Assembly (NCBI RefSeq): GCF_030684315.1
Contig: NC_081394.1
Coordinates: 5,612,163 to 5,676,162 of the forward strand
Length of the DNA stretch: 64,000 nt
Origin: Stegostoma tigrinum
Taxonomy: Eukaryota
Direction: 5' to 3'
Shown: in pieces, positions 3,335-64,000 of the stretch
Layout: each line of letters opens with the position of its first letter
Position numbering within the stretch: the first letter of the stretch is position 1
Notes under the pieces: model-generated
Databases searched by the model: none
Told to the model about the DNA's origin: nothing
The model's input: only the letters and a program-made list of their open reading frames with translations
Made by a program: the position numbers and the translations under genes

Positions 3335-3675
3335 TAGGAGCACAAAAGCTGACGTTTCGGGCCTAGACCCTTCATCAGAGAGGGGGATGGGGAGAGCATT
3401 CTGAAATAAATAGGGAGAGAGGGGTGGCAGACCAAAGATGGATAGAGGAGAAAATAGGGGGAGAGGAGAGTATAGGTGGGGAGGAGTACAGATAGGTCAG
3501 TCCGGGGAGGACGGACAGCTCAAGGAGGCGGAATGAGGTTAGTAGGTAGGAAATGGAGGTGCAGCCTGAGGTGGGAGGAGGGGAAAGGTGAGAGGAAGAA
3601 CAGGTTAGGGAGGTGGGGATGAGCTGGGCTGGTTTTGGGATGCAGTGGGGGGAGGGGACAAGCTGGGCTGGTTGC
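3335..3675 (-). mobile_element. Penelope-like 3' UTR fragment
   Basis: Matches 14250-14610; hammerhead core at 3351-3378. Confidence 0.8.
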
Positions 3676-5097
3676 GATCTCCTGCTTTAATACATGAACC
3701 AGACTCTGGGTTTATCTGTCTGAACCCTGTTTAATACATGAACCACTGGTTTATATGTCTGATGGGAACTGGGACAGCAGAGGAGGTGGAAGGTGAGTCT
3801 TTATATTGTAATGAGTTGGAGGGGGCATTTGGGCGGTGGGGAATGGGAGGATGTTAATTAAGGAGCAAATTACTGCAGGTGCTGGAATCTGTACTGAAAA
3901 CAACAAATACTGGAGATCTCAGCGGGTCAGGCAGTTTCGTAGGAGAGTAAACAAGCTAGTGTTTAAAACCAAAATGATTCTTCATTAGAGCTGAAGTGAA
4001 CTGTGGAGGGGGGTAGCATTTATGCCATAGTACGGCGAGGGGTGTTAGGTGTATGGAGCGCTGGAGGAGAAAGGATGATAGTTCAGACTGAGTGATCAGA
4101 ATGTGAGAATGGTGGAACAATTCTGGATCTACCAGCCAAGCAGGTAAGGACAGCCCCAGAGATAATGGGAACTGCAGATGCTGGAAGGCAGTTGTAACAG
4201 GTTCCCCGCATGTGACAGCAGGCAGGCTGAACTAGGTCATTTGGGAAACTTGGTCGGCATTGAAGGGTTGGGCCAAAGGGACTGTTTCCTTGCTGTAGGA
4301 GTATGGCTACTCAACTACAAGAGGCATCACATCTATACCCAGCCCTGTCCTCAGCATTTAAACATTCCACCAGGGGCTTCACTGGGCAGCAATGGTGAGC
4401 TAGAATAGGAAACTGGTGGTTTCATCCTTACATTGTGGCAACAACACAGAAACAGGCTATTCAGTCCATCTGCCTCACATAGGCCTCCTCCAGGGTCACT
4501 GAGCAATGAAGTGGGCACTCACCAAGAATTCCAAAAGTAGGAAGTGTCACCAATCTCCCTGTCAAACAAAAACCTCTCACGTGTCACAGAGAGAGATGAA
4601 CATTTTGATTAATGTGCACACAATCCCACTCAAAGTCAGACACACTGGTTCTGTTCTTGCTGCCTGATTCGATTGATTTTTGAACAGGTTTATTCTGTGG
4701 ATCCTTGCTTCCCTCCTTCTCCCAGTACTGTCACCTTCTGCCAGGATCCACACCCTAATCTCCATTCACTCTCCGCTAGTCCCCGTTCTATTTGATCCCA
4801 GGGCTGTCGCTAAAGCTTACTCTTTCTGCTCAGGGGTCCAGCCCAGTTCCACGGGACCAGGCTCTGCCATCCCAGTGTCACCGACTGTTGCTCATCGCCC
4901 AGGTACCAATTTTCACATCCCAGGTATTAATCTAATTCTGCGCCTCCGTTTCAGCTCTCTTTCATGATCACAGTCTGTGGTGTGCCCACTCCCTCAATTT
5001 GCAGTTCACACAGCACCCTAAAGCACGGGGAATTCCTGATGCCCCCACCCCCAGCCTTGGATTACTTGTGAAAAGTTCTAGTAGTCACAGCACTAAC

Positions 5098-5143
5098 CTG
5101 TAACAGCATTCACCAACGGGAGTAGTTTCTGGGAGCCGTGCCC
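5098..5143 (-). pseudogene. Inverted-duplicate copy of the gene B leader exon
   Basis: Reverse complement of 16893-16938. Confidence 0.65.
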
Positions 5144-5490
5144 CTACAGCAAGAACAAAAATACAGTGAGCTCCTTTTCAACAGATTCCCTTCCTGATCG
5201 AGTAGATCATCCGGTCCAACCCCCTGGCGGTGACTGACAGATACAGCCCATGAGAAGGGCTGGGACATGGAGACACGGAAGTCACGCAGTGACTAAAATG
5301 ACTGTTTTCTTGCCGTTCGCCAAATACATCTTGAGGGACCATTATTTATCCCCCTTTTTAGATCCGCCCCGCAGTCTCGGTCGAACCCCCTTTTCAATGT
5401 TTCATCTGACCCTCCCCCCACCACCGCGCCCTCCCTCAGTTGATCCACAGATCACTTGGATAGCGAGGGGGGAGAATGTAAACAGAACGG

Positions 5491-5621
5491 AATCGGTTCC
5501 ATTGACAAACTCGTGGACAACTTCACTCTTGGGCATTCCTCAGTGCCAGTAAATTAGAGACAGGGGCATTCCCTTCGTAGGTACAGGGCAGCACAACCCG
5601 TCCGCCAAGGACCCCAAAACT
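5491..5621 (-). pseudogene. Inverted-duplicate copy of the truncated IgV 5' fragment
   Basis: Reverse complement of 16415-16545 (ORF 5523..5840 is identical to 16196..16513). Confidence 0.8.
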
Positions 5622-6488
5622 TCTGTGATTGATGGGAAGATGCCGCATAGTGTGAGGAGGAGACGTGAGTGGAGGAGGAGCGGACCAGCATGTCCCGCAA
5701 GGTTCCTGCAGAATTTTGACAAGGGACGGGAGGGAAATATATGACGAGTGGTGGCATTTTGCTGTACCGTCCACAAGACGTGGGCCCAAACATTGTGCCA
5801 ATGGCCATTTCAACATTCCACTATGTTCCCTGGCCAGCATCTTTGTCTCAGGCTTGTTGTCACAAGGTTCTGTGCTTTACTTGAACAGGCCCGTGAAAGC
5901 AACACCAATCGACCATTCAATGTTCAGAGACTATCTCGGGCCTCAGAGAAATACATTCGAGGCAGGACTGAGCTCCGGGTCAAACTGATCACGAGGGGGA
6001 TCACGAAAAGGGTAGGATGGAAGTTTTCCGTGCTTTCCTTGAGTAGGATCATTCTCAGCTGCTTACACCCACCTGTGGGAACAATCCTCACAGGATCCTC
6101 GGCCGATTGGCACACACTTTCAAGCTCAGTGCACTGGGCTTTGCAAAGGCTGATTGGGGCATGCTGTGATTCCTGCCTTCTGCACACCATGCTCTGGAGA
6201 CAGAAGAACCATGTTCCTGGGGAGGGAGTGCAGTTTCTCACACTGTTAACCCCTTCCATCACCCAGTTTGGTAGCTCTGTCCTCAGGGCTCAGCTCGCAC
6301 AGTCGGGTTTATTACTGAGTTATGCTTTTATTCAATACACTGAACTTAAATTCCCAACATGTCATGTTGGAATTTGAAGTCATTCTCTTGATTATTAGTC
6401 CACACCTTTGGTTTACTCCTCTTATAATGTAAACCCTGCACTACCATCCCAAATAAAAGCAGTGATTAAATACACAATGACCTCTCAC

Positions 6489-6751
6489 CTGTTACAGAAA
6501 GATTAACATGTTGATTCGTTCTCTCAGAAATCTGACATGTTGAACAAGGGTGTTATGCAAAACGTTGACTCTTCGTTGCCTCCAGATCTGCCGCGTTCTT
6601 CAAGCGTCCTGTTTGTCAACTTTGGATTCCAGCATCTGCAGTTTTGTTTGTCTCTAATATATTCCTCATGGTCTGATTTCATGCGGCCCGAGATCACAGC
6701 TGACCAGGTGCCTTGTTACAGTTGATCTTTGAACAGGCTTATTTTATTTCT
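6489..6751 (-). pseudogene. Inverted-duplicate copy of the 3' half of the gene A IgV exon
   Basis: Reverse complement of 15285-15547 (RNKISLFKDQL.QGTWSAVISG..KSDHEEY). Confidence 0.75.
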
Positions 6752-7131
6752 GAGATAACAAAGTGTGGAGCTGGATGAACACAGCAGGCCAAGCAGCATC
6801 TTAGGATCACAAAAGCTGACGTTTCAGGCCCAGACCCTTCATCAGGTGAAGACTTTGTTATCTAAGGACAGTCCCACTCGGGAAGGGAGGGAATGGGTTG
6901 GAGAGGTGGGGAGAACATAGCAGAATGTAACATGTAAAGCAAAAAGAACGGAGGGAATGGGAGTGTATTCACAATCTGAAGCTGTTGAACTCAATATTGA
7001 GCCCAGATGGTCGTAAACAGCTCATTTTGAAGATGAGAGGTTGTTCCTCCAGTTTTCATTGTGATTCACTGCAGCATTGTCGAGGACTGACAGTAGAGTA
7101 TGTGAGTGTAATGCTGTATTATAATCACCGG

Positions 7132-7866
7132 GATAACAAAGTGTGAAGCTGGATGAACACAGCAGGCCATGCAGCATCTCAGCAGCACAAAAGCTGACGT
7201 TTCGGGCCTGGACCCTTCTTCAGAGAGGGGGATGGGGTGAGGGTTCTGGAATAAATAGGGAGAGAGGGGGAGGCGAACCGAAGATGGAGAGAAAAGAAGA
7301 TAGGTGGAGAGAGTGTAGGTGGGGAGGTAGGGAGGGGATAGGTCAGTCCAGGGAAGACGGACAGGTCAAGGAGGTGGGATGAGGTTAGTAGGTAGCTGGG
7401 GGTGCGGCTTGGGGTGGGAGGAAGGGATGGGTGAGAGGAAGAACAGGTTAGGGAGGCAGAGACAGGCTGGGCTGGATTTGGGATGCAGTGGGTGGGGGGG
7501 AAGAGCTGGGCTGGTTGTATGGTGCAGTGGGGGGAAGGGGAGATTTTGAAGCTGGTAAAGTCCACATTGATACCATTGGGCTGCAGGGTTCCCAAGCGGA
7601 ATATGAGTTGCTGTTCCTGCAACCTTCGGGTGGCATCATTGTGGCACTGCAGGAGGCCCATGATGGACATGTCATCTGAAGAATGGGAGGGGGAGTGGAA
7701 ATGGTTCGTGACTGGGAGGTGCAGTTGTTTGTTGCGAACTGAGCGGAGGTGTTCTGCAAAGCGGTCCCCAAGCCTCCGCTTGGTTTCCCCAATGTAGAGG
7801 AAGCCACACCGGGTTCACACTTTGTTATCTTCGATTCTCCAGCATCCGTAGTGCTCATTCTCTCTG
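7132..7866 (-). mobile_element. Penelope-like 3' fragment with inverted terminal segment
   Basis: RRLQEQQLIFRLGTLQPNGIN; 7815-7866 is an inverted copy of the terminus; flanking atcaccggg duplication. Confidence 0.88.
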
Positions 7867-9103
7867 ATTATCACCGGGTACAGTTCATTCATTCTGGCTC
7901 GCTGCGGGGAACCGACTCTCCCATTCTCACAGGGAGGGGGGAGGTGAGAAATCTGGGTACAGCCTCTGTCGGGAAAAGCCAGCTCAAAGCTGCTTGGCCC
8001 CTCAAGGAAGTGGATGGACAAATTGTTTCGGGTGGGGTTCTCCCGGAAAACTGTGGGCCCAGGCCAGGGAGGGGGAATAGGGGTTGATTCTCATGGGATG
8101 TTCCTCCCCCATCTGTCAGTACGATGTGGGTCAGTCCGGAACAAGCTCCACCCCCTCGTCCCTGGATGTGGCGGAAGTTTGTCATTCATAGGGATAGAGG
8201 GAGGGAACTCAGCGGGACATTGCAGAAGCGGCTCTAAGTGACTGACAGTCTGCGCTTCCTGCAACATGGAGCTTTCCAAAGTGTTTCTCTCCGTCTCCTG
8301 TCGGTGTCTGGCTCTGATCCTGCTCCCGGTCCCGGGAAAGGAGGTGCAGGTATTTACTGTCAGTGCCTCCCACCCGGGGACACGGTAGGAGGGGGATCTC
8401 TCTCCCTCGTCACCCCCAGCACTCAACCTCTGTATTAAAGGGAAATGCTGACCATCTCAGATACAAACAGAAAGTGCCGGAACTTGTCAGGAGCGTGTAA
8501 AGTGATCTCTTGAAACATTGAAAAGGGGGTTAGACCGAGACTGCGGGGGCGGATCTAGAAAGGGGGATAAATAATGGTCCCTGAAGATTTATTTGGCAAA
8601 CGGCAAGAAAACAGTCATTTTAGTCACTGCGTGACTTGTCCCCAACCCCCTCACTCCGTGTCTCCATGTCCCAGCCCTTCTCATGGGCTGTATCTGTCAG
8701 TCATCGCCGGGGGGTTGGACCGGATCATCTACTCGATCAGGAAGGGAATCTGTTGGAAAGTGACTCACTGTGTTTTCTTGTTGCAGAAGCTCACGGAAAC
8801 TACTCCTCCAGCTGCTGCGGAATGTTGCTGCTGTTCCAGGTCAGTGCTGTGACTGCTAGAACACTTCAGCAATGATCAAAGGCTGGCGGATGGTGTGGAA
8901 TCAGGAATTCATCTTGCTCTCAGGTGCTGTGTGGACTCCCAAGTGGAACCATTGAGACAGTGGGCACCGTAGGTTCAGATCTGAACACTGAGAAACAATC
9001 GGTGAGACTGGGAAATATCTCTGACCATGGGATGAGAGTTCGGGCAGTGCTGGGATCAAATCACAATCGGACCTGTCTAGGAGTGTGCAGTTGCTGGGGA
9101 TTG

Positions 9104-10040
9104 ACAATAGACAATAGGTGCAGGAGTAGGTCATTCGGCCCTTCGGGCCAGCACCACCATTCATTATGATCATGGCTGATCATCCACAATCAGTATCCTG
9201 TTCCTGCCTTATCCCCATAACCCTTGATTCCACTATCTTTAAGAGCTCTATCCATCTCTTTCTTGAAAGTATCCAGAGAGTTGGCCTCCACTGCCTTCTG
9301 GGGCAGAGCATTCCACAAATCCACCACTCTCTGGGTGAAGAAGTTTCTCCTCAACTCTGTTCTAAATGGCCTACCCCTTATTTTTAAACTGGGTCCTCTG
9401 GTTCTGGACTCACCCATCAGCGGAAACATGCTTCCTGCCTCCAGAGTGTCCAATCCCTTAATAATCTTGTACGTCTCAATCAGATCCCCTCTTATCCTTC
9501 TAAACCCAAGTGTATACAAGCCCAGTCACTCCAATCTTTCAACATATGATAGTCCGCCATTCCAGGAATTGACCTCGTGAACCTACGCTGCACTCCCTCA
9601 ATAGCCAGAATGTCCTTCCTCAAATTTGGAGACCAAAACTGCACACAATACTCCAGGTTCGGTCTCACCAGGGCCCTGTACAGCTGCAGAAGGACCTCTT
9701 TGCTCCTATACTCAATTCCTCTTGTTATGAAGGCAAGCATGCTATTAGCTTTCTTCACTGCCTGCTGTACCTGCATACTTGCTTTCATTGACTGATGTAC
9801 AAGAACGCCTTACCAGCCTTCAGACCTAACAGTCTATCCAACATGATTTCCTGCCTAATATAAATTCCCTTCTGTTCATCCATTACCCTAGGTCCTTCAG
9901 CCACTATTACATCTGGGAGATTGCTTGTGTCTTCCCTCGTGAAGACAGATCCAAAGTACCTATTCAACTCTTCTGCCATTTCCTTGTTCCCCATAATAAA
10001 TTCACCTGTTTCTGTCTTCAAGGCCCCAATTTTAGTCTTA
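9104..10040 (-). mobile_element. CR1 LINE 3' fragment with internal deletion
   Basis: [33 protein letters not shown]; ACAATAG tail. Confidence 0.9.
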
Positions 10041-10467
10041 GCCTGGCCTCTGAGGCCTGGGAGTGGGAGGGTCTGGATCTCATGGGGTGCAGGAGCAAGC
10101 TCTAACAGGTTAGTGGTGGAGGGAGGTGAGGGCACACATTGCCTTGGCCCCTTTCTGACCATCAAGTGTTGCCTCAATCCGTACTCAGATTGTCACTGTT
10201 CCCCGACCGGTCCAAATTCACCCCAAATCCTCAGTGACTCTCCTGCAGTCGTTATTATCTTTGCCTTTCAGGCACAATTTTCTACTTGCTAACTTCACCT
10301 CACATTATCTGAGAGAATTTTGAAAAGGGAACTTGACCAGTATCCAGAGAATGGTCGGAACTGCCGTTGCTGGAGTCTGAGATAACAAGGTGTGGAGCTG
10401 GAGGAACACAGCAGGCCAGGCAGCATCAGAGGAGCAGGAAAGCTGACGTTTTGGGTGGAGCTAGCTA

Positions 10468-10670
10468 GTGAACAAAATTAGGGCACATGGTATTGGGGAC
10501 AAAATACTGACTTGGATTAAAAATTGGCTGGCTGACAGGAAGCAAAGAGTAGTGATAAACGGGTCCCTTTCGGAATGGCAGGCAGTGACAAGTGGGGTAC
10601 CTCAAGGTTCGGTGCTGGGACCGCAGCTGTTTACAATATACATTAATGATATAGACGAAGGCATTAAAAG
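10468..10670 (+). mobile_element. CR1 RT fragment
   Basis: [17 protein letters not shown]...[10 protein letters not shown]. Confidence 0.85.
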
Positions 10671-10799
10671 TAACCCCCAACCTCATCCCAAGACCAGCCC
10701 CCACCTCTTATCCCCGTCTCATTGACCTGTCCATCTTCCCTCCCATCTGTCCGCTTCTCCCACCTCACTAACCAATCCCCACCACTATCTACCTACAGA

Positions 10800-11720
10800 G
10801 ATAGTAGGAACTGTTGATGCTGAAGAATCTGAGGGAACAAGGTGTAGATCTGGATGAAAACAGCAGGCCAAGCAGCATCAGAGGAGCACAAAAGCTGATG
10901 TTTTGCATCTGGACCCTTCTTCAGAAAAGGGGGGAGGGAAGGGGATTCTGAAATAAATGGGGGGTGGATGCGGATGTAAAATGGATAAAGGAGCAGATAG
11001 GTGGAGAGGAGATGGACAAGTCAAGGAGGCGGGGATGGAGCCAGTGAAGGTGAGTGTAGGTGAGGAGTTTGGATGGGCGTAGATCAGTCAAGGAAAGACA
11101 GACAGGTCAAGGAGGTGGGAATGAAGCTGGTAGGTAGGAGGTGGGAGAAAGGTCAGACAGGCTAGGGAGGTGGGAATGACCTGGGCTGGTTTGGGACGTA
11201 GTCAGGAGCAGGGAGATTTTGAAGCTTGTGAAGTCCACATTGATACCATTAGGCTGCAGGGTTCCCAAGCGAAATATGATGTGCTGTTCCTGCAACCTTC
11301 GGGTGGCATCATTGTGGCACTGGAGGAGACCCAGGACCATATTGTCCAAAGAGTGGGAGGAGGAATTGAAGTGGTTTGTGACTGGGAGGTGCAGTTGTTT
11401 GTCGGAAAATGAGCGTAGGTGTTCCACAAAGCGGCCTCCGCTTTGTTTCCCCGATATAGAGGAGGCCACATCGCGAACAGCAGATACAGTATACCACATT
11501 AGCAGATGTGCAGGTGAACATCTGTTTAATGTGGAAGATTTTCTTGGGTCATGGGATGGGGGTGAGGAGGGAGGTGTAGCACTTCCTACGGTTGCAGGGA
11601 ACAGTGCCGAGGAGAGGTGGGGTTAGTGGGGAGTGTGGAGCAGATCAGGGAGTCACAGAGAGAGCAGTCCCTCCGGAAGGCAGATAAGGGTGGGGAGGGA
11701 GAAATTTCCTTCATTGTGGG
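10800..11720 (-). mobile_element. Penelope-like GIY-YIG/3' fragment, inverted relative to the adjacent long copy
   Basis: ORFs 11107 and 11309 (SANVVYCICC...YIGETK). Confidence 0.88.
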
Positions 11721-11964
11721 GTCATCTTCCATCCAACTACCTACCTACACTCACTAGCTTCATCCCTGCCTCCTTGATCTGCTCTCTATCCACTCCTCCC
11801 ACCTCACCGACGAATTCCCACTCCTGCATACATGACCTTTTAATAGCTTAATTTCCACCTCCCTGACCTGTCAGAACCCTATCCACTCCACTATCTACCT
11901 GCTATCACCGTGCCCCCCTATTTATTTCAGAGCCCCCTTCCCCTCCCCCATTACTGATGAAGCT

Positions 11965-14695
11965 CCGCTCACTGCTGACACCGACATTGCTCCGTCTACA
12001 GCCAGCAACCCCAGAGAAGATAGCCACACTGAGCCCTGCCAAATTTTCACCATTCCCCCAGATCTCTCCCTGACTGAGGACAAACGGTCAGTCCTCAGCG
12101 AGGGGCTCACCTTTTCCTCCCCCTCCACCTACACATCAACGAATACCAGTCACGTTTGGACATCGAGCCGTTTTTTTCGTCGCCTTTGCCTCCACGCTTA
12201 CTTCTCTAACCGTGAGCCTAACCCTCCCTCTACTGACCCCTTCTCCTGCCTCCAACACATCCCCTCCTCCTGGACACCACCCCCAGGCGTCCTACCCTCC
12301 CTTGACCTCTTCATCTCCAACAGCCGACGAGACATTAACCGCCTCAACCTCTCCACCCCTCTCACCCACTCCAACCTCTCCCCCGCAGAACGGGCAGCCC
12401 TCCGCTCCCTCCGCTCCAACCCCAACCTCACCATCAAACCCACAGACAAGGGTGGCGCAGTGGTAGTGGAGCGCACTGACCTCTACATCGCCGAGGCCAA
12501 ACGCCAACTCTCCGACACCTCCTCCTACCGCCCCCTGGATCATGACCCCACACCCGAACACCAAACCATCATCTTCCAAACCATTCACAACTTCATCACC
12601 TCAGGTGACCTCCCACCCACAGCCTCCAACCTCATCGTTCCCCAACCCTGCACGGCCCGTTTCTATCTCCTTCCTGAAATCCATAAACCCTCCTGCCCTG
12701 GTCAGCCCATTGTCTCAGCCTGTTCCTGCCCCACCGAACTCATCTCCACCTATCTGGACTCCATTTGCTCCCCCTTGGTCCAGGAACTCCCTACCTACGT
12801 CCGTGACACCACCCACGCCCTCTGCCTCCTCCAGAACTTCCAATTCCCTGGTCCGCAACACCTCATTTTCACCAAGGATATCCAGTCCCTATACACCTGC
12901 ATTCCCCATGCAGATGGCCTAAAAGCCCTCCACTTCTTCCTATCCTGCTGACCTGACCAGTCCCTCTCCACCGACACCCTCATCCGCCTAGCCTCGCCAA
13001 ACTCGTCCTCACCCTCAACAACTTCTCTTTTGATTCCTCCCACTTCCTACAGACAAAGGGATGGCCATGGGTACCCACATGGGCCCAAGCCAAGCCTGCC
13101 TCTTTGTAGGTTATGTGGAACAGTCCCTCTTCCGTACCTACACAGACCTCAAACCCCACCTCTTCCTCTGTTACATTGATGACTGTATCGGAGTCACCTC
13201 TTGCTCCCAAGAGGAGCTCGAACAGTTCATCCACTTCACCAACACCTTCCACCCCAACCTTCAGTTCACCTGGACCATCTCCAGCACATCCCTCACCTTC
13301 CTGGACCCCTCTGTCTCCATCTCAGGCAACCACCTAGAAACCAAGATCCATTTCAAGCCCACCGACTCCCACAGCTACCTAGAATACACCTCCTCCCACC
13401 CACCCTCCTGCCAAAATTCCATCCCCTATTCCTAATTTCTTCGCCTCCGCTGCATCTGCTCCCAAGATGAGGCATTCCACTCCCGTACATCTCAGATGTC
13501 CTCATTCTTCAAGGACTGCAACTTCCCCCCTGCAGTGGTCATGATCGCCCTCGACCGTGTCTCCCGCATTTCCCGCAACTCATCCCTCACACCCCGTGCC
13601 CGCAATAACTGCCAAAAGAGAATCCCCCTCGTCCTCACATACCACTCCACCAACCTCTGGATACAATGCATTATCCTCCAACACTTCCGCCATTTACAAT
13701 CCGACCCCACCACCAAAGACATTTTTCCATCCCCACCCTTGACTGCCTTCCGGAGAGACCACTCTCTCCACGACTCCCTTGCCCGCTCCACACTCCCCTC
13801 CAACCCCACCACACCCAGCAATTAGCCTTGCAACTGCAGGACTACACTTGCCCCAACACCTCCTCCCTCACCCCCCTCCCAGGCCCCAAGAAGACTTACC
13901 ACATCAAGCAGATGTTCACCTGCACATCTGCTAATGTGGTATATTGTATCCGCTGTACCCGGTGTGGCTTCCTCTACATCGGGGAAACCAAGCGGAGGCT
14001 TGGGGACCACTTTGCAGAACACCTCCGCTCGGTTCGCACTAAACAACTGCACCTCCCAGTCGCAAACCATTTTAACTCCCCCTCCCATTCTTTAGATGAC
14101 AATTCCATCCTGGGCCTCCTGCAGTGCCACAATGATGCCACCCGAAGGTTGCAGGAACAGCAACTCATATTCCACTTGGGAACCCTGCAGCCCAATGGTA
14201 TCAATGTGGATTTCACAAGCTTCAAAATCTCCCCTCCCCCCACCACATCCCAAAACCAGCCCAGCTCATCCTTGCCTCCCTAACCTGTTCTTCCTCTCAC
14301 CTATCCCCTCCTTCCACCCCAAGCCGCACCTCCATTTCCTACCTACTAACCTCATCCCACCTCCTTGACCTGTCTGTCCTCCCTGGACTGACCTATCCCC
14401 CCCCCCCCCCCCTCTACCTCCCCACTTGCACTCACCTCTACTGGCTCCATCCCTGCCTGTTTAACTTGTCTATCTCCTCTCCACCTATCTTCTCCTCTAT
14501 CCATCTTGGATCCGCCTTCCCTTCTCTCCCTATTTATTTCAGAACCCTCTCCCCATCCCCCTCTCCAATGAAGGGTCCAGGCCCAAAATGTCAGCTTTTG
14601 TGCTCCTAAGATGCTGCTTGGCCTACTGTGTTCATCCAGCTCCACCCTTTGTTATCTCAGATTCTCCAGCATCTGCAGTTCCCATTATCTCTCTC
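11965..14695 (+). mobile_element. Penelope-like element (Neptune type), RT plus GIY-YIG, degenerate
   Basis: KPTDKGGAVVV, GMAMGTHMGP, YIDD, FTCTSANVVYCIRC..C..LYIGET.RRL..HF.EH; 3' terminus with degenerate hammerhead. Confidence 0.93.
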
Positions 14696-15019
14696 GACCT
14701 GAAACATCAGCTTTCCTACTCCTCCGACGCTGCCTGGCCTGCTGTGTTCCTCCAGCTCCACCTTTTGACCAGTATCTCGCTGTGTTCTCCCAGCATGTGT
14801 CCAAATGAGAAAGTGATTCAAAATGCTGACCCCCTACTCAGTCCTGACAAATACCCAGAGCAAGCTGCTTTTAGTTGAGGTTCTTGCATGTCTCAGCTTT
14901 AACCTTCCCACAGAAATGAAAGCAGTGAGTTACTGATCAGGGTATCCATGTGAAACTTAGGATGTAGTGTATCAGCAGGGAGATTATATCTGTGGATAAA
15001 TACATTCACTCTTTTCCAG

Positions 15020-15547
15020 GTGACTCGCCTGTCCTAGTTTCTGGGTTCACTGGGGAGTAGCTTGTGCTGCCCTGTACCTGGAAACGGAATTTACAGGTAA
15101 TCTGGAGGGCACCTAAGAAGAAAATTGTCCAAAAATTTCTCAATGGGAAAGATGAGTTGAGAGAACAAGACCCACAGTTCAGAAACCAAATGGATGAAGG
15201 GTCTGGGCCTGAAACATCAGCTTTTGTGCTCCTGAGATGCTGCTTGGCCTGCTGTGTTCATCCAGCTCCACACTTTGTTATCTCAGAAATAAAATAAGCC
15301 TGTTCAAAGATCAACTGTTACAAGGCACCTGGTCAGCTGTGATCTCTGGCCGCATGAAATCAGACCATGAGGAATATATTAGAGACAAACAAAACTGCAG
15401 ATGCTGGAATCCAAAGTTGACAAACAAGACGCTTGAAGAACACGGCAGATCTGGAGGCAACGAAGAGTCAACGTTTTGCATAATACCCTTGTTCAACATG
15501 TCAGATTTCTGAGAGAACGAATCAACATGTTAATCTTTCTGTAACAG
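15020..15547 (+). pseudogene. Disrupted B7-like IgV exon of gene A
   Basis: Acceptor cttttccag; upstream intron homologous to 47410-47490 and 50880-50900; in-frame stop and two insertions. Confidence 0.85.
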
Positions 15548-16414
15548 GTGAGAGGTTATTGTGTATTTAATCACTGCTTTTATTTGGGATGGTAGTGCAG
15601 GGTTTACATTATAAGAGGAGTAAACCAAAGGTGTGGACTAATAATCAAGAGAATGACTTCAAATTCCAACATGACATGTTGGGAATTTAAGTTCAGTGTA
15701 TTGATTAAAAGCATAACTCAGTAATAAACCCGACTGTGCGAGCTGAGCCCTGAGGACAGAGCTACCAAACTGGGTGATGGAAGGGGTTAACAGTGTGAGA
15801 AACTGCACTCCCTCCCCAGGAACATGGTTCTTCTGTCTCCAGAGCATGGTGTGCAGAAGGCAGGAATCACAGCATGCCCCAATCAGCCTTTGCAAAGCCC
15901 AGTGCACTGAGCTTGAAAGTGTGTGCCAATCGGCCGAGGATCCTGTGAGGATTGTTCCCACAGGTGGGTGTAAGCAGCTGAGAATGATCCTACTCAAGGA
16001 AAGCACGGAAAACTTCCATCCTACCCTTTTCGTGATCCCCCTCGTGATCAGTTTGACCCGGAGCTCAGTCCTGCCTCGAATGTATTTCTCTGAGGCCCGA
16101 GATAGTCTCTGAACATTGAATGGTCGATTGGTGTTGCTTTCACAGGCCTGTTCAAGTAAAGCACAGAACCTTGTGACAACAAGCCTGAGACAAAGATGCT
16201 GGCCAGGGAACATAGTGGAATGTTGAAATGGCCATTGGCACAATGTTTGGGCCCACGTCTTGTGGACGGTACAGCAAAATGCCACCACTCGTCATATATT
16301 TCCCTCCCGTCCCTTGTCAAAATTCTGCAGGAACCTTGCGGGACATGCTGGTCCGCTCCTCCTCCACTCACGTCTCCTCCTCACACTATGCGGCATCTTC
16401 CCATCAATCACAGA

Positions 16415-16545
16415 AGTTTTGGGGTCCTTGGCGGACGGGTTGTGCTGCCCTGTACCTACGAAGGGAATGCCCCTGTCTCTAATTTACTGGCACTGAGGAA
16501 TGCCCAAGAGTGAAGTTGTCCACGAGTTTGTCAATGGAACCGATT
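16415..16545 (+). pseudogene. Truncated 5' half of a third IgV exon
   Basis: SFGVLGGRVVLPCTYEGNAPVSNLL, then a frameshift and W->TGA, then GMPKSEVVHEFVNGTD; no acceptor and no 3' half. Confidence 0.8.
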
Positions 16546-16892
16546 CCGCTCTGTTTACATTCTCCCCCCTCGCTATCCAAGTGATCTGTGGATCAACTGA
16601 GGGAGGGCGCGGTGGTGGGGGGAGGGTCAGATGAAACATTGAAAAGGGGGTTCGACCGAGACTGCGGGGCGGATCTAAAAAGGGGGATAAATAATGGTCC
16701 CTCAAGATGTATTTGGCGAACGGCAAGAAAACAGTCATTTTAGTCACTGCGTGACTTCCGTGTCTCCATGTCCCAGCCCTTCTCATGGGCTGTATCTGTC
16801 AGTCACCGCCAGGGGGTTGGACCGGATGATCTACTCGATCAGGAAGGGAATCTGTTGAAAAGGAGCTCACTGTATTTTTGTTCTTGCTGTAG

Positions 16893-16938
16893 GGGCACGC
16901 CTCCCAGAAACTACTCCCGTTGGTGAATGCTGTTACAG
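16893..16938 (+). CDS. Gene B leader-type exon (GHASQKLLPLVNAVT), shortened
   Basis: ttcttgctgtag| 46 bp |gttagtgctgtgact, phase 0-1; homologous to 53303-53360. Confidence 0.55.
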
Positions 16939-19900
16939 GTTAGTGCTGTGACTACTAGAACTTTTCACAAGTAATCCAAGGCTGGGGGTGGGGGCATCAG
17001 GAATTCCCCGTGCTTTAGGGTGCTGTGTGAACTGCAAGTTGAGGGAGTGGGCACACCACAGACTGTGATCATGAAAGAGAGCTGAAACGGAGGCGCAGAA
17101 TTAGATTAATACCTGGGATGTGAAAATTGGTACCTGGGCGATGAGCAACAGTCGGTGACACTGGGATGGCAGAGCCTGGTCCCGTGGAACTGGGCTGGAC
17201 CCCTGAGCAGAAAGAGTAGGCTTTAGCGACAGCCCTGGGATCAAATAGAACGGGGACTAGCGGAGAGTGAATGGAGATTAGGGTGTGGATCCTGGCAGAA
17301 GGTGACAGTACTGGGAGAAGGAGGGAAGCAAGGATCCACAGAATAAACCTGTTCAAAAATCAATCGAATCAGGCAGCAAGAACAGAACCAGTGTGTCTGA
17401 CTTTGAGTGGGATTGTGTGCACATTAATCAAAATGTTCATCTCTCTCTGTGACACGTGAGAGGTTTTTGTTTGACAGGGAGATTGGTGACACTTCCTACT
17501 TTTGGAATTCTTGGTGAGTGCCCACTTCATTGCTCAGTGACCCTGGAGGAGGCCTATGTGAGGCAGATGGACTGAATAGCCTGTTTCTGTGTTGTTGCTA
17601 CAATGTAAGGATGAAACCACCAGTTTCCTATTCTAGCTCACCATTGCTGCCCAGTGAAGCCCCTGGTGGAATGTTTAAATGCTGAGGACAGGGCTGGGTA
17701 TAGATGTGATGCCTCTTGTAGTTGAGTAGCCATACTCCTACAGCATGGAAACAGTCCCTTTGGCCCAACCCTTCAATGCCGACCAAATTTCCCAAATGAC
17801 CTAGTTCAGCCTGCCTGCTGTCACATGCGGGGAACCTGTTACAACTGCCTTCCAGGGTAAAGACTTTGAGAAATCTAAAAGCAGAGGGGTCGTGACCTCA
17901 TTGAATGAATGAACGGAATCAAGGGGCTGAATGGCCACTTTCTGTTCCTGTGAGAGTGGTAGTTGGGTGGCATCACGAAGGGTGATTGTAAGGGGCGGCT
18001 CAGTGGCTAGCACTGCTGCTTCCCAGCACCAGGGACCCAGGATCAATTCCAGCCTCAGGCTGTGTGGAGTTTCCACTTTCTCCCCATGTCTGCGTGGGTT
18101 GCCTCCAGGTGCTCCGGTTTGTCTCAAAGATGTGCACGCCAGATGGATTGGCCATGCTAAATTGCCCATAGTGTTCAGTGCTGTCTAGATTAGGTAGGGG
18201 AATGGACCTGTGTCGGATGTTCTGAGGGTCAGTGTAGGCTTGTTGGGTCGAAGGGCCTGTTTCCACACTGTAGGGACTCTCTGATTCTATGGTGTATGAA
18301 AATATATTACATTTTGCTGAGGTCATACCTGGAACATTGCTTAGTTTCTCTCCTCCCCCGAGTCAGGATAGACTTAACTTGGAGGATGAGCAGCAGAGAT
18401 TCACCAGGCTGATTCCTGGGATAAGGGGATTATCCAATGAAGAGAGAATGAGTGGAATGGGTTCATATTCCCTGGTGCTTAGAAGAATGAGAGGTATTTT
18501 CATTGAAAGGGATGAATTCCTTACGGGGTTGTCTCTACTTCACCCCCCACGACCCTGAGATGTAGAAATAGGAGTTGCGGTTAACAGTCGCAGTGTAAGC
18601 TGTTTTGAATCAGAAGGGAAGTTCCATTTATCAAATTCTTGGAATTCTCTTCCCCCAGAGAGCTGAGACTGCTCAATGTTCAAGTATTTTCAAGACTAAA
18701 CTAATATCAGGAAATTTTGTGCATTAGGAGATAAGATGGGTAGGTGAGGTGGAACAATGGGTGAGGCGGGGGGGGCGGAAAGAAATTAAAAAGTTGCTTG
18801 ACAATGTTTGTTTCATTTCTTTTCAGTACCTACTGAAGCACCAGCAAATATAATGATGAATAAATGTGTGACCAAGGATCAGAGGCCAGTCCTTAAATGT
18901 GGATTAACCGAGATAGTTTGCAATGGCTCAAGTTGCACTGCGAATTATAGGGCATATTTTAATCAGTCCAGTTGCTGGTATGTGTGCATTGCAGATGTTC
19001 AATATCTGAAAGACTCATCTAAAGGTGATCTTATTCTTGAATTTGGGAACATGGAGTCCTCAGAAGCGTTATTCCTCCGGTTCAGGACAGATCATGGTGA
19101 GTTTAGCAGAATGAGCGTTCCATTGTCTGTGCTTCAAATGCTTTTCCCCCTCCAATGAAAATTCACTTTGCTGGCCTGAGAATCCCACCCCGGGGTGGGG
19201 TGGGAAGAATGTGAAAGCTCCTCGTCTTTTATTACTTTTACGTAACAAAGAACTGAAGTATCAAGTGCTAAGAATCCACTTACCAACACAGCTGTGAAAT
19301 CACTCACTCTTCCCCCCCACCGCTCCCCAAAATAAATCTCCAACTCACCTTCCCAGCTTGGAGAGGTATTGGCCATCCCTTCATCGTTTGACTCCAAATC
19401 CTGGAACCTANNNNNNNNNNNNNNNNNNNNNNNNNNNNNNNNNNNNNNNNNNNNNNNNNNNNNNNNNNNNNNNNNNNNNNNNNNNNNNNNNNNNNNNNNN
19501 NNNNNNNNNNNNNNNNNNNNNNNNNNNNNNNNNNNNNNNNNNNNNCCAGATCCTACTGGGAGGTTCACATGAATAACTGAGTCAGTACCTTCCCTTCCAA
19601 TTGCTCCTAGCTCCTTGGATATATTTCCAAGTAAGGATTGAGAGGGACTTGGAGAGAAACTTGTAGTGGGCGTTGCTCTTCCCCTGTATCTGCTGCCCTT
19701 GTCCTTCTTGATGGAAATAGTTGTCAGCGTTCCCTCCAGTTTTGATTTTGCCTGCGTTAGCCCCCAAGGGCTGTGTGCGGCCATGAACTTTCACACCTGG
19801 AGGTCCGTGCCACCATCCTTGTTCCAACACCAGTCAGTGTGCAGAAACCCAGCAAGACTGCAACTTTAGAGAGAACGCCTTTGGCCAAGGGTTTGGGAAG

Positions 19901-43642: not shown

Positions 43643-46600
43643 CTAGGAGAGAGAAATCAGCAGATTGCAAATTATATTAGAATTAAATTATACTAAAATA
43701 TTATGTTAACTATTTAATCCATTCAGCCTTCAATCTTGCACGACTATATTTAGATATTAAGTGGCATCATGATCATCATAAAAATACGTACTGAAGATAT
43801 AAGCAGGTTATAATTCTATATATAGAGATAATAAAATGGGAGGCTGGATGAACACAGCAGGCCAAGCAGCATCTCAGGAGCACAAAAGCTGACGTTTCGG
43901 GCCTAGACCCTTCATCAGAGAGGGGGATGGGGAGAGGGAAATGGAATAAATAGGGAGAGAGGGGGAGGCGGACCGAAGATGGAGAGTAAAGAAGATAGGT
44001 GGAGAGAGTATAGGTGGGGAGGTAGGGAGGGGATAGGTCAGACCAGGGAAGACGGACAGGTCAAGGAGGTGGGATGAGGTTAGTAGGTAGCTGGGGGTGC
44101 GGCTTGGGGTGGGAGTAAGGGATGGGTGAGAGGAAGAACCGGTTAGGGAGGCAGAGACCGGTTGGACTGGTTTTGGGATGCAGTGGGTGGGGGGGAAGAG
44201 CTGGGCTGGTTGTGTGGTGCAGTGGGGGGAGGGGACGAACTGGGCTGGTTTAGGGATGCAGTGGGGGAAGGGGAGATTTTGAAACTGGTGAAGTCCACAT
44301 TGATACCATATGGCTGCAGGGTTCCCAGGCGGAATATGAGTTGCTGTTCCTGCAACCTTCGGGTGGCATCATTGTGGCAGTGCAGGAGGCCCATGATGGG
44401 TTGTCATCTACAGAATGGGAGGGGGAGTGGAAATGGTTTGCGACTGGGAGGTGCAGTTGTTTGTTGCGAACTGAGCGGAGGTGTTCTGCAAAGCGGTCCC
44501 CTATAATTCTATATAGATGGGTTAAGCGAGTGGGCAAAAATCTGGCAGATGGAATGTAACTGGGGAAAATGGTAAGTTATTCATTTTGGCAGAAAGAATG
44601 AAAAATATGGAGTAATACTTAGACAATTTGGAGGGATGTAGGCATTCTAGTGTAAGTGAGAAAACGATTGGTATAGAGACACAGCAAGTAAATAAAACTA
44701 ATGGGATGCTATCCCATATCACAGGATGAATTGAACATATGCATGATATTTTCTTAGAGCATCTCCAAGATTGAAGTGAGTTCTTACTTTTCTATTTGTC
44801 CGATGCCTCAGTCAGCACAGCTCCTGTGAAGGTCTAACTCTTGCCCATTTCCTCCCCATAAGCCTCCTCCCCTTTACACTGTTCTCCAAAACAATGCAGC
44901 TCCTGGCACTTATTTTCCAGCTGCCATTGGTGGCCTGGACAATAAATGTAATTTCAGGGGGTTGGATAACATGGCCTTTCAGGCTGGTAGGAGGACGCAG
45001 AGGCTCCAGACCATTAAACAAACAACAGAAATGCTCAGAGACTCTATCAGGCTTCATAGAACCACGTCCAGGGAGGGCTTGAGTCAGATGGATCAGCAAC
45101 AGGATCGGGAAGGAAGATTCCAAAGGGATGGCATTGTCTTTCAAGGCAAAATAGCACTTTGCAACGTTATCCATAAAGTTCAAAATGTACTACTGCACAC
45201 ATCATCTTCACGATATAAAATGTAATGACACAAAACTAGAATTAACGATAGGAAATGCAGAACATTCTATAACTCACCGTTTTATTAAGCTTTGGGCTAT
45301 GACAGCAACATAAATACCGACAAAAAAGACAGCATAAATAATTGCTGTTAGTTCACCATGAGACAGTCCAGTATCTAGAGACAGAATGGAGCCATTAACA
45401 GACTGGTTCACACAAACAAAACTAACAGCAGAGACCTTCAGAACCAGGCCCAGTACAAACAGATCCCTGAGTAGTTCCTGGAGGCATATGCACACTGCTC
45501 CACAGTAAGATTGATACATACTTTCCAATAGGAAGAACTGGACACTGACTAGCACCAGCCTCCATTCATTTAAATTGAACAGCACCTGGAATCGAGCAGG
45601 TTAACAGTGCCCCATACCACTCACTCTCCCTATCATTCTTTGGTAAAATATCACACAGCATTTCAAACATTCCAATGTTCCTTCCTGTCTGTCCAGCAAG
45701 ATCAAATGTAAGAGCTGAAAACACATGCAGTAGATTTACCTGGTACAGGTGTGTTCGGTACAGGTGTAGGAGCTCGCTCTAAAGAAAACATCATGTGTTT
45801 AGCACGGTGTGTGAAACAAACTACAGAAAATTTCAGAGACTCTATCGCGCTTTACAGAAACACATCTAGGGAGGAAACAGGTTCAGGTCAAACTGATCTG
45901 GAGGGATCAGGAACAGGATTGGGAGGAGTGAAAATTCCAACAGGATTCCATTAACTGTGAAGGGAAGAATGGAAGTTTTCCAGAGATTCCTGAGCAGGAT
46001 CCTTCCCAGCAGCTCACATCCCCCTGCGGGGGACAATCCTCACAGGATCCTGGGCCGACTGGGAGACACTTTCAAGCTCAGTGCACTGGGTCTTGTAAAG
46101 GCTGTTTGGGGCGTGCTGTGGGTCCCACCTCCTATACCGCAACCTCAGAGACAGAAGAACCATGCTTCTGGGGACAAAGTGCAGGTTCTCACACCATCAA
46201 TCCCTTCCATCACCCAGTTTGGTAGCTCCATCCGTCAGGGCTCAGCCAACTCACTCGGTGGGATTTATTTCTGAGTGACCGTCGGATGGACAGAGAAGAC
46301 CCACTCAGTAGATTTTCTATCTGTGTGACCCTCAGTGCTTCCTCCAAGAGATGGTGAATATTGTAGGGTACCTATTGATCAGCTCAGGGAGGGCAGGAGG
46401 TTTCCAGGCCCATGTTCGACTGGATGTTGGGAGACTTCATGGGGCTCACAGTCAATGTTGAGGAATCCCAAGGTCAATCCCAATTGATTGCATATATTTG
46501 TACTGCTATTTCTAGCAGGTCTACTTTCCCTGTAAGACTAGGCATATCCAAGGATGGTGACAGCAGAATCTGGGACACAAGGTTGATACAACCACAGTTG

Positions 46601-49600
46601 TATCAGTCACACAGTTCTCCTACCTCGGACACTGGTACTCAAGTGGGCTGGATTTAAACCGAGTATCCTGATTTCTTGCCTAGGTCACAGTCTAGTGATT
46701 TGACACAAACTGATTCAAGTAGCCAAGTAGGTCAGAGGGCAGTTAAGTATCAATCTGGTAAATGTGGGACTGGAGTCACATATGGAGCAAACCAGGCAAG
46801 GATAGCAGGTTTCTTTCCTTCAAGGGACCTGAGTCAACCACTTGGGGTTTTACAATAACCCAAAAGTTTCATGGTTACTTTTGTTGGAGCCAACTCTCTA
46901 TTTCCAATTTTTATTAATTAAGCCAATTTTAAATTCTGGAAGTGCCATGGTGAAATTTGAACTCTCATTCTCTGGATTATTAGTCCAGTAATATAGCCCC
47001 TGCATTAATCTCGCTGTAAAATTCAGTGATTAAATGCAGAATACCCGACTGAGGAACTGCTTACCTGTTACTGAGAGATGGACAAAATCAGTTTGCTCCA
47101 AATTATAGCCCACAGCTGCTCTCTTGTAAATGTAACACTTATACTCATCCTGGTCAGACTCCCTGAGGTCAGAGATCAGAAGTGACCAGTTGCCTTGTTC
47201 CAGTTGATCACTGAACAGATCTGTTCTGTTTCTGAATCTTGGGTGTTGGTCTGTCAAATCATTGTTCCCATCGATGAACTTCCATAAAATTTCATGCTCT
47301 GAAATGCCCCAGATTACCAGTAAATTGGAGACTGGGACAATCCTTTTGTAGGTACAGGGCAGCACAACCTGTTCCCCAAGGAACCCAGAAGCTGGGACAG
47401 GACAGTCACCTGGAAAAAAAGAGTGAAAGTATTTATCCACAGATATAGCCTCCCTGCTGGTACTTTACATCCCAAGCTTCACATGGATACATGGAGATGC
47501 TGGATTTAGAACATAGAACATAGAACATAGAACAGTACAGCACAGAACAGGCCCTTCAGCCCACAATGTTGTGCCGACCATTGATCCTCATGTATGCACC
47601 CTCAAATTTCTGTGACCATATACATGTCCAGCAGTCTCTTAAATGACCCCAACGACCTTGCTTCCACAACTGCTGTTGGCAACGCATTCCATGCTCTCAC
47701 AACTCTCTGCGTAAAGAACCTGCCTCTGACATCCCCTCTATACTTTCCACCAACCAGCTTAAAACTATGACCCCTCGTGCTAGCCATTTCTGCCCTGGGA
47801 AAGTCTCTGGCTATCAACTCTATCTATGCCTCTCATTATCTTGTATACCTCAATTAGGTCCCCTCTCCTCCTCCTTTTCTCCAATGAAAAGAAACCGAGC
47901 TCAGTCAACCTCTCTTTATAAGATAAGCCCTCCAGTCCAGGCAGCATCCTGGTAAACCTCCTCTGAACCCTCTCCAAAGCATCCACATCTTTCCTATAAT
48001 AGGGCGCCCAGAACTGGACGCAGTATTCCAAGTGCGGTCTAACCAAAGTTTTATAGAGCTGCAACAAGATCTCACGACTCTTAAACTCAATCCCCCTGTT
48101 AATGAAAGCCAAAACACCATATGCTTTCTTAACAACCCTGTCCACTTGGGTGGCCATTTTAAGGGATCTATGTATCTGCACACCAAGATCCCTCTGTTCC
48201 TCCACGCTGCCAAGAATCCTATCCTTAATCCTGTACTCAGCTTTCAAATTCGACCTTCCAAAATGCATCACCTCGCATTTATCCAGGTTGAACTCCATCT
48301 GCCACCTCTCAGCCCATCTCTGCATCCTGTCAATGTCCCGCTGCAGCCTACAACAGCCCTCTACACTGTCAACGACACCTCCGACCTTTGTGTCGTCTGC
48401 AAACTTGCTGACCCATCCTTCAATCCCCTCATCCAAGTCATTAATAAAAATTACAAACAGTAGAGGCCCAAGGACAGAGCCCTGTGGAACCCCACTCACC
48501 ACTGACTTCCAGGCAGAATATTTTCCTTCTACTACCACTCGCTGTCTTCTGTTGGCCAGCCAATTCTGTATCCAAGCAGCTAAGTTCCCCTGTATCCAAT
48601 TCCTCCTGACCTTCTGAATGAGCCTACCATGGGGAACCTTATCAAATGCCTTACTGAAGTCCATATACACCACATCCACAGCTCGAACCTCATCAACTTT
48701 TCTAGTCACATCTTCAAAAAACTCTATAAGGTTTGTAAGGCATGACCTACCCCTCACAAAGCCGTGTTGACTGTATTTGATCAAGCCATGCTTTCAGATG
48801 GTCATAAATCTTATCCCTCAGAATCCTTTCTAACACCTTGCAGACGACAGACGTGAGACTTACTGGTCTATAATTGCCGGGGATTTCCCTATTTCCTTTC
48901 TTGAAGGGAGGAATTACATTTGCCTCTCTCCAGTCCTCAGGTACGACTCCAGTGGAGAGCGAGGATGCAAAGATCTTCGCAAGTGGCGAAGCAATTGCAT
49001 TTCTCGCTTCCCAAAGCAGCCGAGGACAAATCTGGTCCGGGCCTGGCGACTTGTCAATCTTAATGTTTGACAAAATTTTCAGCACATCAGCTTCCTCTAT
49101 CTCTATCCATTCCAGCATGCACACCTGCTCTTCAAAGGTTTCATTCACTACAAAGTTCGTTTCTCTCGTAAAGACAGAAGCAAAAAACTCATTTAGGGCT
49201 TCCCCTACCTCCTCAGGCTCCACACACAAGTTCCCTATGCTATCCCTGATCGGCCCTACTCTTTCTTTGATCATTCTCTTATTCCTCACATAAGTGTAAA
49301 ATGCCTTTGTGTTTTCCCGGATTCCTTCTGCCAAGCCTTTCTCGTGCCCCCTCCTAGCTCTCCTCAGACCATTTTTGAGCTCCTTCCTTGCCTGCATGTA
49401 ATCCTCTCTAGCTGAACTTGACCCTAGCTTCCTCCACCTTATGTAAGCTACCTTCTTCCTTTTCACAAGAAGCTCCACCGCTCTCGTCATCCAAGGTTCC
49501 TTTATCTTACCCCTTTTTGCCTGTCTCAGAGGGACATATTTACTCATCACTCCCAACAACTGTTCCTTAAACAGTCTCCACATGTCTATAGTTCCCTTAC

Positions 49601-62589: not shown

Positions 62590-62875
62590 TAGCGGCTCAA
62601 TTGGTGCTCTTTCACCTGGAGGTTTCTTCTCGTCCGTTGTTTTGATTCGAGGTTTGAAATCTGAAAGGCGCGCAGGCGCACGGTGGCTCGAGCCGGCGGA
62701 GGTCTGCGCTTGCGCGGGGCTCGAGCCGTCAAGCTAAGCGGAGGGTTGCGCTTGCGCGGGTGACGTTTTAGCGCCGCGCCGTGCGTTCGTTTCACTGAGC
62801 TCGGCGGGAAAGTGGTGCAGCGAGAGGTGGAGGGGAAAATAGAGACAGAGAGGGCAAGTAGAGAGATTGAGGGGT
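62590..62875. promoter_or_regulatory. CpG-rich promoter of a neighbouring gene
   Basis: Dense CpG; three NRF1-like GCGC(A/T)(G/T)GCGC; TGACGT; E2F GGCGGGAAA at 62803-62811; CHR-like TTTGAA at about 62653. Confidence 0.7.
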
Positions 62876-62879
62876 AAAG

Positions 62880-64000
62880 TGGGATGGGGAATGTGGGGGG
62901 GGGAGAATGGGGAATGGGGGGGGGGGGGAATGGGGAATGGGGGGGGGGGGGGAATGGGGAATGGGGGGGGGGGGGGGAATGGGGAATGGGGGGGGGGGGG
63001 GAATGTGGGGGGGGGGAGAGAATGGGGGGGGAGAATGGGGGGTGGAGGAGAATGGGGGGGGGGAGAATGGGGGGGGGAGGAGAATGGGGGGGGGGGAGAA
63101 TGGGGGGGGGGGGAGAATGGGAATGGGGGGGGAGAGAATGGGGGGGGGGAGAATGGGGAATGGGGAATGGGGGGGGGGGAATGGGGAATGGGGGGGGGGA
63201 GAATGGGGAATGGGGGGGGGGGAGAATGGGGAATGGGGGGGGGAGAATGGGAATGGGGGGGGGGAGAATGGGGAATGGGGGGGGGGAGAATGGGGAATGG
63301 GGGGGGGAATGGGGAATGGGGGGGGGAATGGGGAATGGGGGGGGGGAATGGGGAATGGGGGGGGGGGGAATGGGGAATGGGGGGGGGGAATGGGGAATGG
63401 GGAATGGGTGGGGGGGGGGAATGGGGAATGGGGGGGGGGAGAATGGGGGGGGGGAGAATGGGGAATGGGGGGGGGAGAATGGGGAATGGGAATGGGGGGG
63501 GGGAGAATGGGAATGGGGGGGGGGAGAATGGGGAATGGGGGGGAGAGAATGGGGAATGGGGGGGGGGAGAATGGGGAATGGGGGGGGGGGAGAATGGGGA
63601 ATGGGGAATGGGGGGGGGGAGAATGGGGGGGGGGAGAATGGGAATGGGGGGGGGGAGAATGGGGAATGGGGGGGGGGAGAATGGGGAATGGGGGGGGGGG
63701 AGAATGGGAATGGGGGGGGGAGAGAATGGGGAATGGGGGGGGGGGAGAATGGGGAATGGGGGGGGGAGAATGGGGAATGGGGGGGGGGGAGAATGGGGAA
63801 TGGGGGGGGGGAATGGGGAATGGGGAATGGGGGGGGGAGGAGAATGGGGAATGGGGGGGGAGGAATGTGGGGGGGGGAGAATGGGAATGTGGGGGGGGGG
63901 AGAATGGGAATGTGGGGGGGGGGAGAATGGGGAATGTGGGGGGGGGGGAGAATGGGGAATGTGGGGGGGGGGAGAATGGGGAATGTGGGGGGGGGGGAAT
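62880..64000 (+). repeat. G-rich (G)n-(GA)GAAT simple tandem repeat
   Basis: Over 1.1 kb of GGGG(G)nAAT/GAGAAT units running off the window end. Confidence 0.97.

Follow-up and report, generated by a model that had tools for sequence, protein, structure and literature searches.

An inverted copy of B7-like gene fragments within a Penelope-like element insertion in Stegostoma tigrinum: a candidate product of fold-back DNA synthesis

Introduction

In the genome of Stegostoma tigrinum, a 2.6-kb inverted copy of neighbouring DNA lies inside the insertion of a short element derived from a Penelope-like element (PLE), with one target-site duplication (TSD) enclosing the whole. Within the stretch of 64,000 nucleotides analysed here (the window), this unit at 4145-6876 keeps the donor, the entry, the exit and the TSD visible together, and can be read as a record of how a PLE insertion was resolved. 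PLE integration is described as poorly understood, and an in-vitro system has been called for (PMC8557442). In the favoured reading, to which a probability of about 0.5 is given, the head-side end folded back during integration and the copy was synthesised on a DNA template; that DNA-templated fold-back as such was responsible is considered quite probable. The unit represents a known type of scar, unusually long and well preserved, with modest biological consequence.

Structure of the Insertion Unit

Self-BLAST of the window confirms the inverted duplication proposed in the first-pass annotation: positions 4181-6843 are the reverse complement of 15193-17855 over 2663 bp, with 99.3% identity, 18 mismatches and no gaps. 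Fifteen of the differences fall in the cargo and three (6802, 6807, 6820) in the element part of the arm, which covers 95 bp (6749-6843). The unit is flanked by TAAGGACAG(C/T)CCCA on the plus strand at 4145-4158 (left) and 6863-6876 (right), two 14-bp copies that differ at one base; such 13/14 agreement was reached by random pairs of window 14-mers 16 times in 2,000,000.

On the minus strand, one copy of the TSD is followed by the inverted element end (11 bp), a linker of 6 nt and the head (97 bp); then come the 2563-bp cargo, a tail piece of 27 nt and the other TSD copy. The linker and the inverted pLTR end copy (6846-6862, minus strand; the end copy itself at 6852-6862) would correspond to the second, twin-primed strand, and had been overlooked previously. 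The pLTR head with its minimal hammerhead motif occupies 6749-6845 (minus strand), where 6749-6843 is homologous to the donor at 15287-15193 with the three differences listed above, and 6844-6845 supply the CT of CTGATGA, which is missing from the donor. The cargo (4186-6748, minus strand) is an inverted copy of 15288-17850 and is followed by the 3' tail piece of the element (4159-4185, minus strand); 4158-4185 matches the element end at 14665-14692 in 28 of 28 positions. On the minus strand, the cargo end matches the first 5 nt of the tail piece, a 5-bp microhomology located at 4181-4185 (the last 5 nt of the tail piece by coordinate) and 17851-17855. With the intact element end near 14568-14692 as reference, just 3 nt (TTC) have been lost at the cargo position.

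The donor is a tail-less short element at 15193-15282 (plus strand), situated inside an IgV exon and bounded by its own TSD of 11/13 (15179-15191, 15283-15295), with the donor flank at 15283-17855 (plus strand). The inverted 95-bp heads of unit and donor are separated by the single-copy spacer 6844-15192. These matches uphold the earlier description of Penelope-derived ends, a TSD around the whole unit, entry at a paralogous element 8 kb away and exit through a CTGGA-type microhomology.

The Penelope-Like Family and Its Normal Products

A decayed long element of the same family, with RT and GIY-YIG pieces, a pLTR and a tail, lies at 11836-14692 (plus strand), where profile matches to RVT_1 (E=0.0024) and GIY-YIG (E=0.008) are both weak and below gathering cut-offs. 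The parent element has the order RT, then GIY-YIG endonuclease, ending in the same pLTR as the unit, which by its sequence is an EN+ Penelope-like element derivative. This long element (11.8-14.7 kb) was considered as donor and rejected, with 8 mismatches. Genome-wide, 86,701 exact tails and, with one pattern, 147,156 heads were counted. The left head carries the motif CTGATGA-stem II-GAAAC, in which stem II is predicted, and the minimal-hammerhead reading rests on these two features; an Rfam scan of 3500-19000 gave no hammerhead match, and whole-fold z-scores were not significant.

At 199 genomic places, the hammerhead start lies no more than 20 bases after a short inverted end, compared with 0 for the control. 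Among 20 such loci, six have a forward-side tail and a TSD as in the present unit, and 14 have an inverted-side tail. Without its cargo, the unit would be a normal family product composed of a short inverted piece, a hammerhead head and a tail, and it matches the structure reported for PLEs, an inverted 5' copy with a 30-40-bp tail on one side (PMC8557442). It is common in this family for tail pieces of the size seen here to be joined through microhomology. Minimal insertions, in which only a tail piece of about 25-30 bp lies within a TSD, were also observed (L107, L116, L163, L170, L174, L178, L179, L199). Additionally, two identical complex inverted PLE-end units (L201 and L202, G000:C9:62742862 and 62777306) occur 34 kb apart with flanks identical over the 360 bp compared, which reads as a recent local duplication.

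Direction of Copying and Contig Support

Both outer flanks of the unit belong to one old repeat. In five of the ten loci compared (L012, L013, L020, L021, L022), these flanks are adjacent and collinear, and in the sequences of L012 and L013 the target site is present once. The paralog at 45832-47490 aligns collinearly to the right copy both before and after the donor element, and the halves of the donor V exon are contiguous in paralog L004. Because the paralogous repeats hold an empty site and the donor is collinear with paralogs, the left copy is read as an insertion into an old repeat, and the right copy, with the flank 15283-17855 as the ancestral version of the cargo, as the original; the derived status assigned to the left copy by the first-pass annotation is thus borne out. 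The empty site is seen in paralogous repeats and not as an allele. No third high-identity copy of the cargo was found among 40 scored of 1459 candidates in the 3.2-Gb genome.

Contigs over the region come from four runs, which represent one study and no more than two samples; one of these runs may have served for the assembly itself. Contigs of X1, X2 and X3 (4092-4179 and 4159-onward) cross the left junctions with 21-27 element-side bases, under the bridging standard, and an X1 contig (6817-7125) bridges the right junction with 0 differences; none in the runs examined spans the whole unit. An assembly or haplotype artefact, or an ancestral left copy, could draw on this missing single contig and on the 22-27 element-side bases with which the tail/cargo junction is crossed, fewer than the 31-base standard for bridging. 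Such an explanation is nevertheless scarcely credible when set against the 18 differences with mutations on both copies, the X1, X2 and X3 contigs that cross both the TSD/tail and the tail/cargo junctions, the X1 contig at the right junction, and the empty-site paralogs together with donor collinearity.

X1 and X4 contain variants that are missing from both assembled arms, which shows polymorphism in the arms and prevents their 0.7% divergence from serving as a clean clock. Contig depth at the left junction is similar to that of its flank, about 1.5-fold in the arms and mostly lower in the donor flanks, these depths not being equivalent to copy numbers. The interval 15016-15133 has almost no contig cover, which proves nothing. 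At 14780-15133 and 18030-18170, on the donor side, the flanks mostly have less depth than those on the left, and the contigs over the arms carry predominantly left alleles. The contig samples may be heterozygous for the donor region or may contain a diverged version of it. Contig joints that skip the cargo were considered as traces of an empty allele and set aside, as they derive from other family copies; none skipping the whole unit occurred among 15 of 275 matches listed.

Origin of the Head

The first-pass annotation contrasted 3 differences in 92 element positions with about 15 in 2570 bp of arm and took the element portion for a separate resident half. The counts stand (3 in the element, 15 in the cargo), with the element part now measured at 95 bp, whereas the independent resident half does not follow from them, as the neighbouring cargo is equally diverged. 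Seven of the 15 cargo differences fall in the 418 bp adjoining the head, and the divergence of the head differs from that of the whole arm (Fisher p=0.024) but not from that of these 418 bp (p=0.40). Differences along the arm are denser near the head, with 10 in 513 bp (6331-6843) versus 8 in 2150 bp (4181-6330; KS p=0.012), and outgroups place mutations on both arm copies. This gradient possibly results from arm-to-arm gene conversion of the distal part.

Of the copies in the window, the donor resembles the left head most closely, with 3 mismatches versus at least 5 for the others over comparable lengths. Both heads have a pair of variants that is carried by 267 of 147,156 heads (0.18%). Because the adjoining cargo is as diverged and rare variants are shared, the higher divergence of the element part is no proof of a resident half. 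Position 6802 has an A-type base in the left head and G in the donor, the copies compared being divided into 83 with A and 211 with G; the A-type base occurs in 36 of the 100 first-listed heads with the variant pair and in 6 of the 100 first-listed heads overall. The idea that the left head belongs to a subfamily of its own was considered and rejected, its rarer variant occurring 48 times in mixed backgrounds. Along the head, donor-type bases are found at 15205 and 15210 and left-type bases at 15216, 15229 and 15234. A 19-bp interval contains all three differences, and the 53 bp 3' of it are identical. The boundary common to both heads is non-discriminating, since in any case the 5' ends of heads are concentrated at the hammerhead start (138 of 402 matches compared, a biased sample).

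On balance, although not decisively, the 5' part of the head appears to have been copied from the donor, and the recipient would have needed little head of its own, because this part shares the 0.18% donor variant. The strongest competitor invokes the same DNA-templated copying at a later time, in which a break in a complete resident short element was followed by invasion of, or annealing to, the 95-bp donor head and by microhomology rejoining. It is in keeping with the position of all head differences 5' of the identical stretch, with an A-type base and a CT start in the left head that the donor lacks, and with the loss of only 3 nt between the element halves, and Alu-Alu hybrids reported at human fold-back junctions (PMC3907307) offer a parallel. 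A resident of this kind would, however, have to share the 0.18% variant pair with the donor or have received a far-end conversion patch, and the head is no more diverged than the cargo beside it. A later break is accordingly regarded as rather unlikely, while still preferred to the alternatives discussed below.

Related Junctions Elsewhere in the Genome

Tail pieces without the normal upstream sequence were collected with two patterns that gave 291 and 161 matches (452). From these, 123 junctions were examined: the top 30 of each list, plus 63 that were selected visually among the first 100 entries of the lists, mostly for upstream bases that looked foreign. Scripted classification assigned 70 of them to the antisense PLE strand, 13 to sense PLE, 8 to tail-only insertions with a TSD and 32 to foreign sequence. 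The form of the tail-piece junction is that of a normal integration junction, because 70 of the 123 join antisense PLE and 8 are tail-only with a TSD. A search for local donors among the 28 foreign-upstream cases with at least 5 kb of context found one in 4 and none in 24.

Three of the 123 junctions are clear analogues, all inverted and with donors at 0.3-1.8 kb, and one is weak. At L182, a tail with a 70-bp inverted copy from 0.3 kb away is enclosed by a TSD of 13/13 with no head, and its cargo matches the local copy at 66 of 66 positions compared with at most 93% for the other copies compared. L092 has, inside its tail, an inverted copy of 42 bp whose donor is 1.3 kb distant (TSD 14/14). 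L098 contains 376 inverted bp, made up of 92 bp of element and 284 bp of flank, from a donor element about 1.7 kb off on the head side; a TSD was looked for there and not found. Its differences, 4 in the first 39 bp of the element part and 2 in the 284-bp cargo, form the pattern that a crossover between two full elements would leave, which agrees with a later break in a resident element, while L182 speaks against such a break as a TSD-bounded capture without any head. The weak analogue (L119/L193) has 61 bp in direct orientation with 93% identity to a site 550 bp away. Similar cargo-bearing elements, as envisaged in the first-pass annotation, do therefore occur, with three clear cases and one weak among 123 of the 452 junctions, a partly hand-picked sample; by extrapolation, tens of such cases would be expected genome-wide. 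Captures with local inverted donors are suggested to form a recurrent, countable class in this genome, which makes the choice between DNA and RNA templates accessible to a genome-scan test.

The same cases bear on the proposal, raised earlier as an alternative, that the PLE RT switched template after 27 nt of tail to an unspliced read-through RNA of the donor and copied it up to the donor head, similar to trans-mobilisation in Adineta. The resolved donors, in a search confined to local ones, all lie 0.3-8.3 kb away on either side, and the clear ones are inverted, an arrangement that fits DNA fold-back. The copy stops at 15193 instead of at the hammerhead cut 15219, where the cut RNAs of the family appear to begin (AGCTTTT), and the hammerhead core of the donor is defective, without CU. 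Copying from RNA is thus less favoured and considered improbable.

The two short captures also provide a precedent for invasion of the donor at 17855 by the tail-side strand through the 5-bp microhomology (MMBIR-like), followed by copying toward the donor head and capture by the other end. Donor-type variants at the 5' end of the head would be accounted for in this way, and tail-side captures by microhomology are known from L182 and L092. These captures are, however, just 42-70 bp long, and with the donor across the break the required template strand would presumably not be exposed by resection, leaving this route very improbable.

Proposed Mechanism

In descending order of favour, the explanations are fold-back at integration, a later break in a resident element, RT copying of read-through RNA, and tail-first invasion. 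Fold-back at integration starts from the observed 14-bp TSD, tail piece, inverted end piece, and identity and direction of the donor, and would proceed as follows. The element endonuclease would cut the target, and the RT would extend both ends by twin priming. The tail-side strand would halt after 27 nt, as is frequent in the family, while the other strand, ending in a short sense head piece, would anneal intramolecularly to the antisense head at 15193, 8.3 kb away. DNA synthesis would then pass through the donor head and its flank to 17855, copying 2.6 kb of flank, and microhomology joining to the 27-nt tail strand would close the gap, probably in the course of sealing the insertion.

The donor lies on the head side, with an inverted head, at both the 4145-6876 unit and L098, and on the tail side, without homology, at L182 and L092; by their orientation, all four inverted cases would fit same-strand fold-back of a free 3' end. 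Fold-back during integration is favoured because capture is tied to TSD formation at L182, where a TSD of 13/13 encloses a unit with no head. Against this reading, the A-type base at 6802 in the left head and the three differences within 19 bp would suit a separate resident element, the two-element pattern of L098 comes with no TSD found, the TSD-bounded captures that lack homology are short (42-70 bp), 24 of 28 foreign-upstream cases gave no local donor, and none of the contigs examined covers the unit from end to end. It is conceivable, though less than even, that PLE integration regularly triggers fold-back copying of neighbouring DNA in the Stegostoma tigrinum genome, in short tracts through microhomology and in kilobase-long tracts near an inverted family copy. 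If so, an element with more than 147,000 copies would act as a genome-wide generator of local inverted duplications, immune-gene clusters included.

Comparison with Known Systems

A PLE capture described in the rotifer Adineta vaga holds intron-containing host DNA between direct pLTR pieces and one inverted piece, with a TSD around all of them (Arkhipova et al. 2013, PMC3846280), a report that also mentions other unrelated sequences between solo pLTRs. The present unit likewise has intron-bearing host DNA between pLTR pieces, an enclosing TSD and an empty site (in paralogous repeats). It differs from the capture described there in that its pLTR pieces are halves of one unit of about 145 bp, its cargo is a gene fragment, and its donor is known, inverted, 8.3 kb off and equipped with its own pLTR head at the entry, with a DNA template favoured. 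No intact gene was moved in the present case, as the cargo starts in the middle of a V exon and contains a second element, stops and frameshifts.

For L1, three insertions containing sequence templated near the site have been described (PMC11702581), and homology-promoted recombination of L1 intermediates is reported (PMC13526784). As in these accounts, twin-primed ends, TSDs in the range of 12-18 bp, microhomology joins and copying of near-site DNA are involved; unlike them, the unit described here belongs to the GIY-YIG PLE order without poly-A, is germline, and contains a tract of several kilobases whose entry point is a paralogous element. In humans, inverted duplications by fold-back arise at inverted SINE/LINE pairs with spacers of 0.8-70 kb (Hermetz et al. 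2014, PMC3907307), with repeat hybrids in 3 of 21 junctions. The inverted copy, the single-copy spacer (8.3 kb here) and the repeat homology at the turn are comparable, whereas in the present case the other end was rejoined after 2.6 kb and a TSD insertion resulted, with neither a dicentric nor a terminal deletion; both flanks are kept, together with the TSD.

PLEs whose pLTRs carry minimal hammerheads have been documented (PMC4209133, PMC8557442), and the unit resembles them in its pLTR minimal hammerhead motif, inverted 5' piece and one-sided tail, while differing from those described there as a non-coding end fragment with foreign cargo. No such capture in cartilaginous fish or in a vertebrate PLE was found in literature titles and abstract openings, a search outside of which most subscription papers fall.

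Cargo and the B7-Like Gene Cluster

A broken B7-like IgV exon contributes its second half to the cargo, which further contains introns, old repeats, another short element of PLE type, a segment conserved in the gene cluster and a second V-like exon that is degenerate. Its gene identity rests on intact paralogous V exons, at window 47033-47464 and in L007, which are V-set Ig domains (E=2e-8 and 2e-9) with best solved-structure matches to CD276, VTCN1 and PD-L1; the locus is a cluster of B7-like (CD276-like) genes. A Pfam search of five donor-side pieces gave no Ig match, and a weak Fz match among them was taken as chance.

The first-pass annotation regarded the event as a route for duplicating immune-gene exons. 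The cargo is indeed Ig-superfamily immune DNA, but no functional exons were duplicated, because it begins in the middle of a V exon that was already interrupted. Two element insertions, along with stops and frameshifts, had disrupted the donor copy before the duplication, which included no working exon set and created no gene here. Clustered B7/CD276-like IgV genes and pseudogenes were observed at window 14813-17855 and 45832-47490 and at G000:C53:5428000-5482200 and 5604659. At least seven paralogs retain a segment of about 300 bp (15716-16028) with 76-82% conservation. The end of the window (62871-64000) is a long tandem array of simple sequence.

Junctions at the Predicted Hammerhead Cut

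At 74 genomic places, the tail end of the element is joined to a head, with examples at L203-L206 (G000:C1:144587922-144588161, C2:105869207-105869661, C3:25128653-25128888 and C17:3732997-3733128). In 67 of the 74, the sequence resumes at AGCTTTT, the predicted hammerhead cut, and the upstream GTC is kept in one; a control window further downstream gave 12 junctions at scattered positions. The junctions are likely to stem from an RNA of about 102 nt cut by the ribozyme, either through jumps of the RT between templates or through RNA circles, and hence to be a genomic trace of in-vivo cleavage by the PLE minimal hammerhead. They may matter more than the capture itself in view of the 2014 account of PLE ribozymes (PMC4209133), which states that in-vivo evidence for their role was lacking as of that year. 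Some of the junctions lie in arrays, with units of 104-107 nt and variable A/T additions at the joints.
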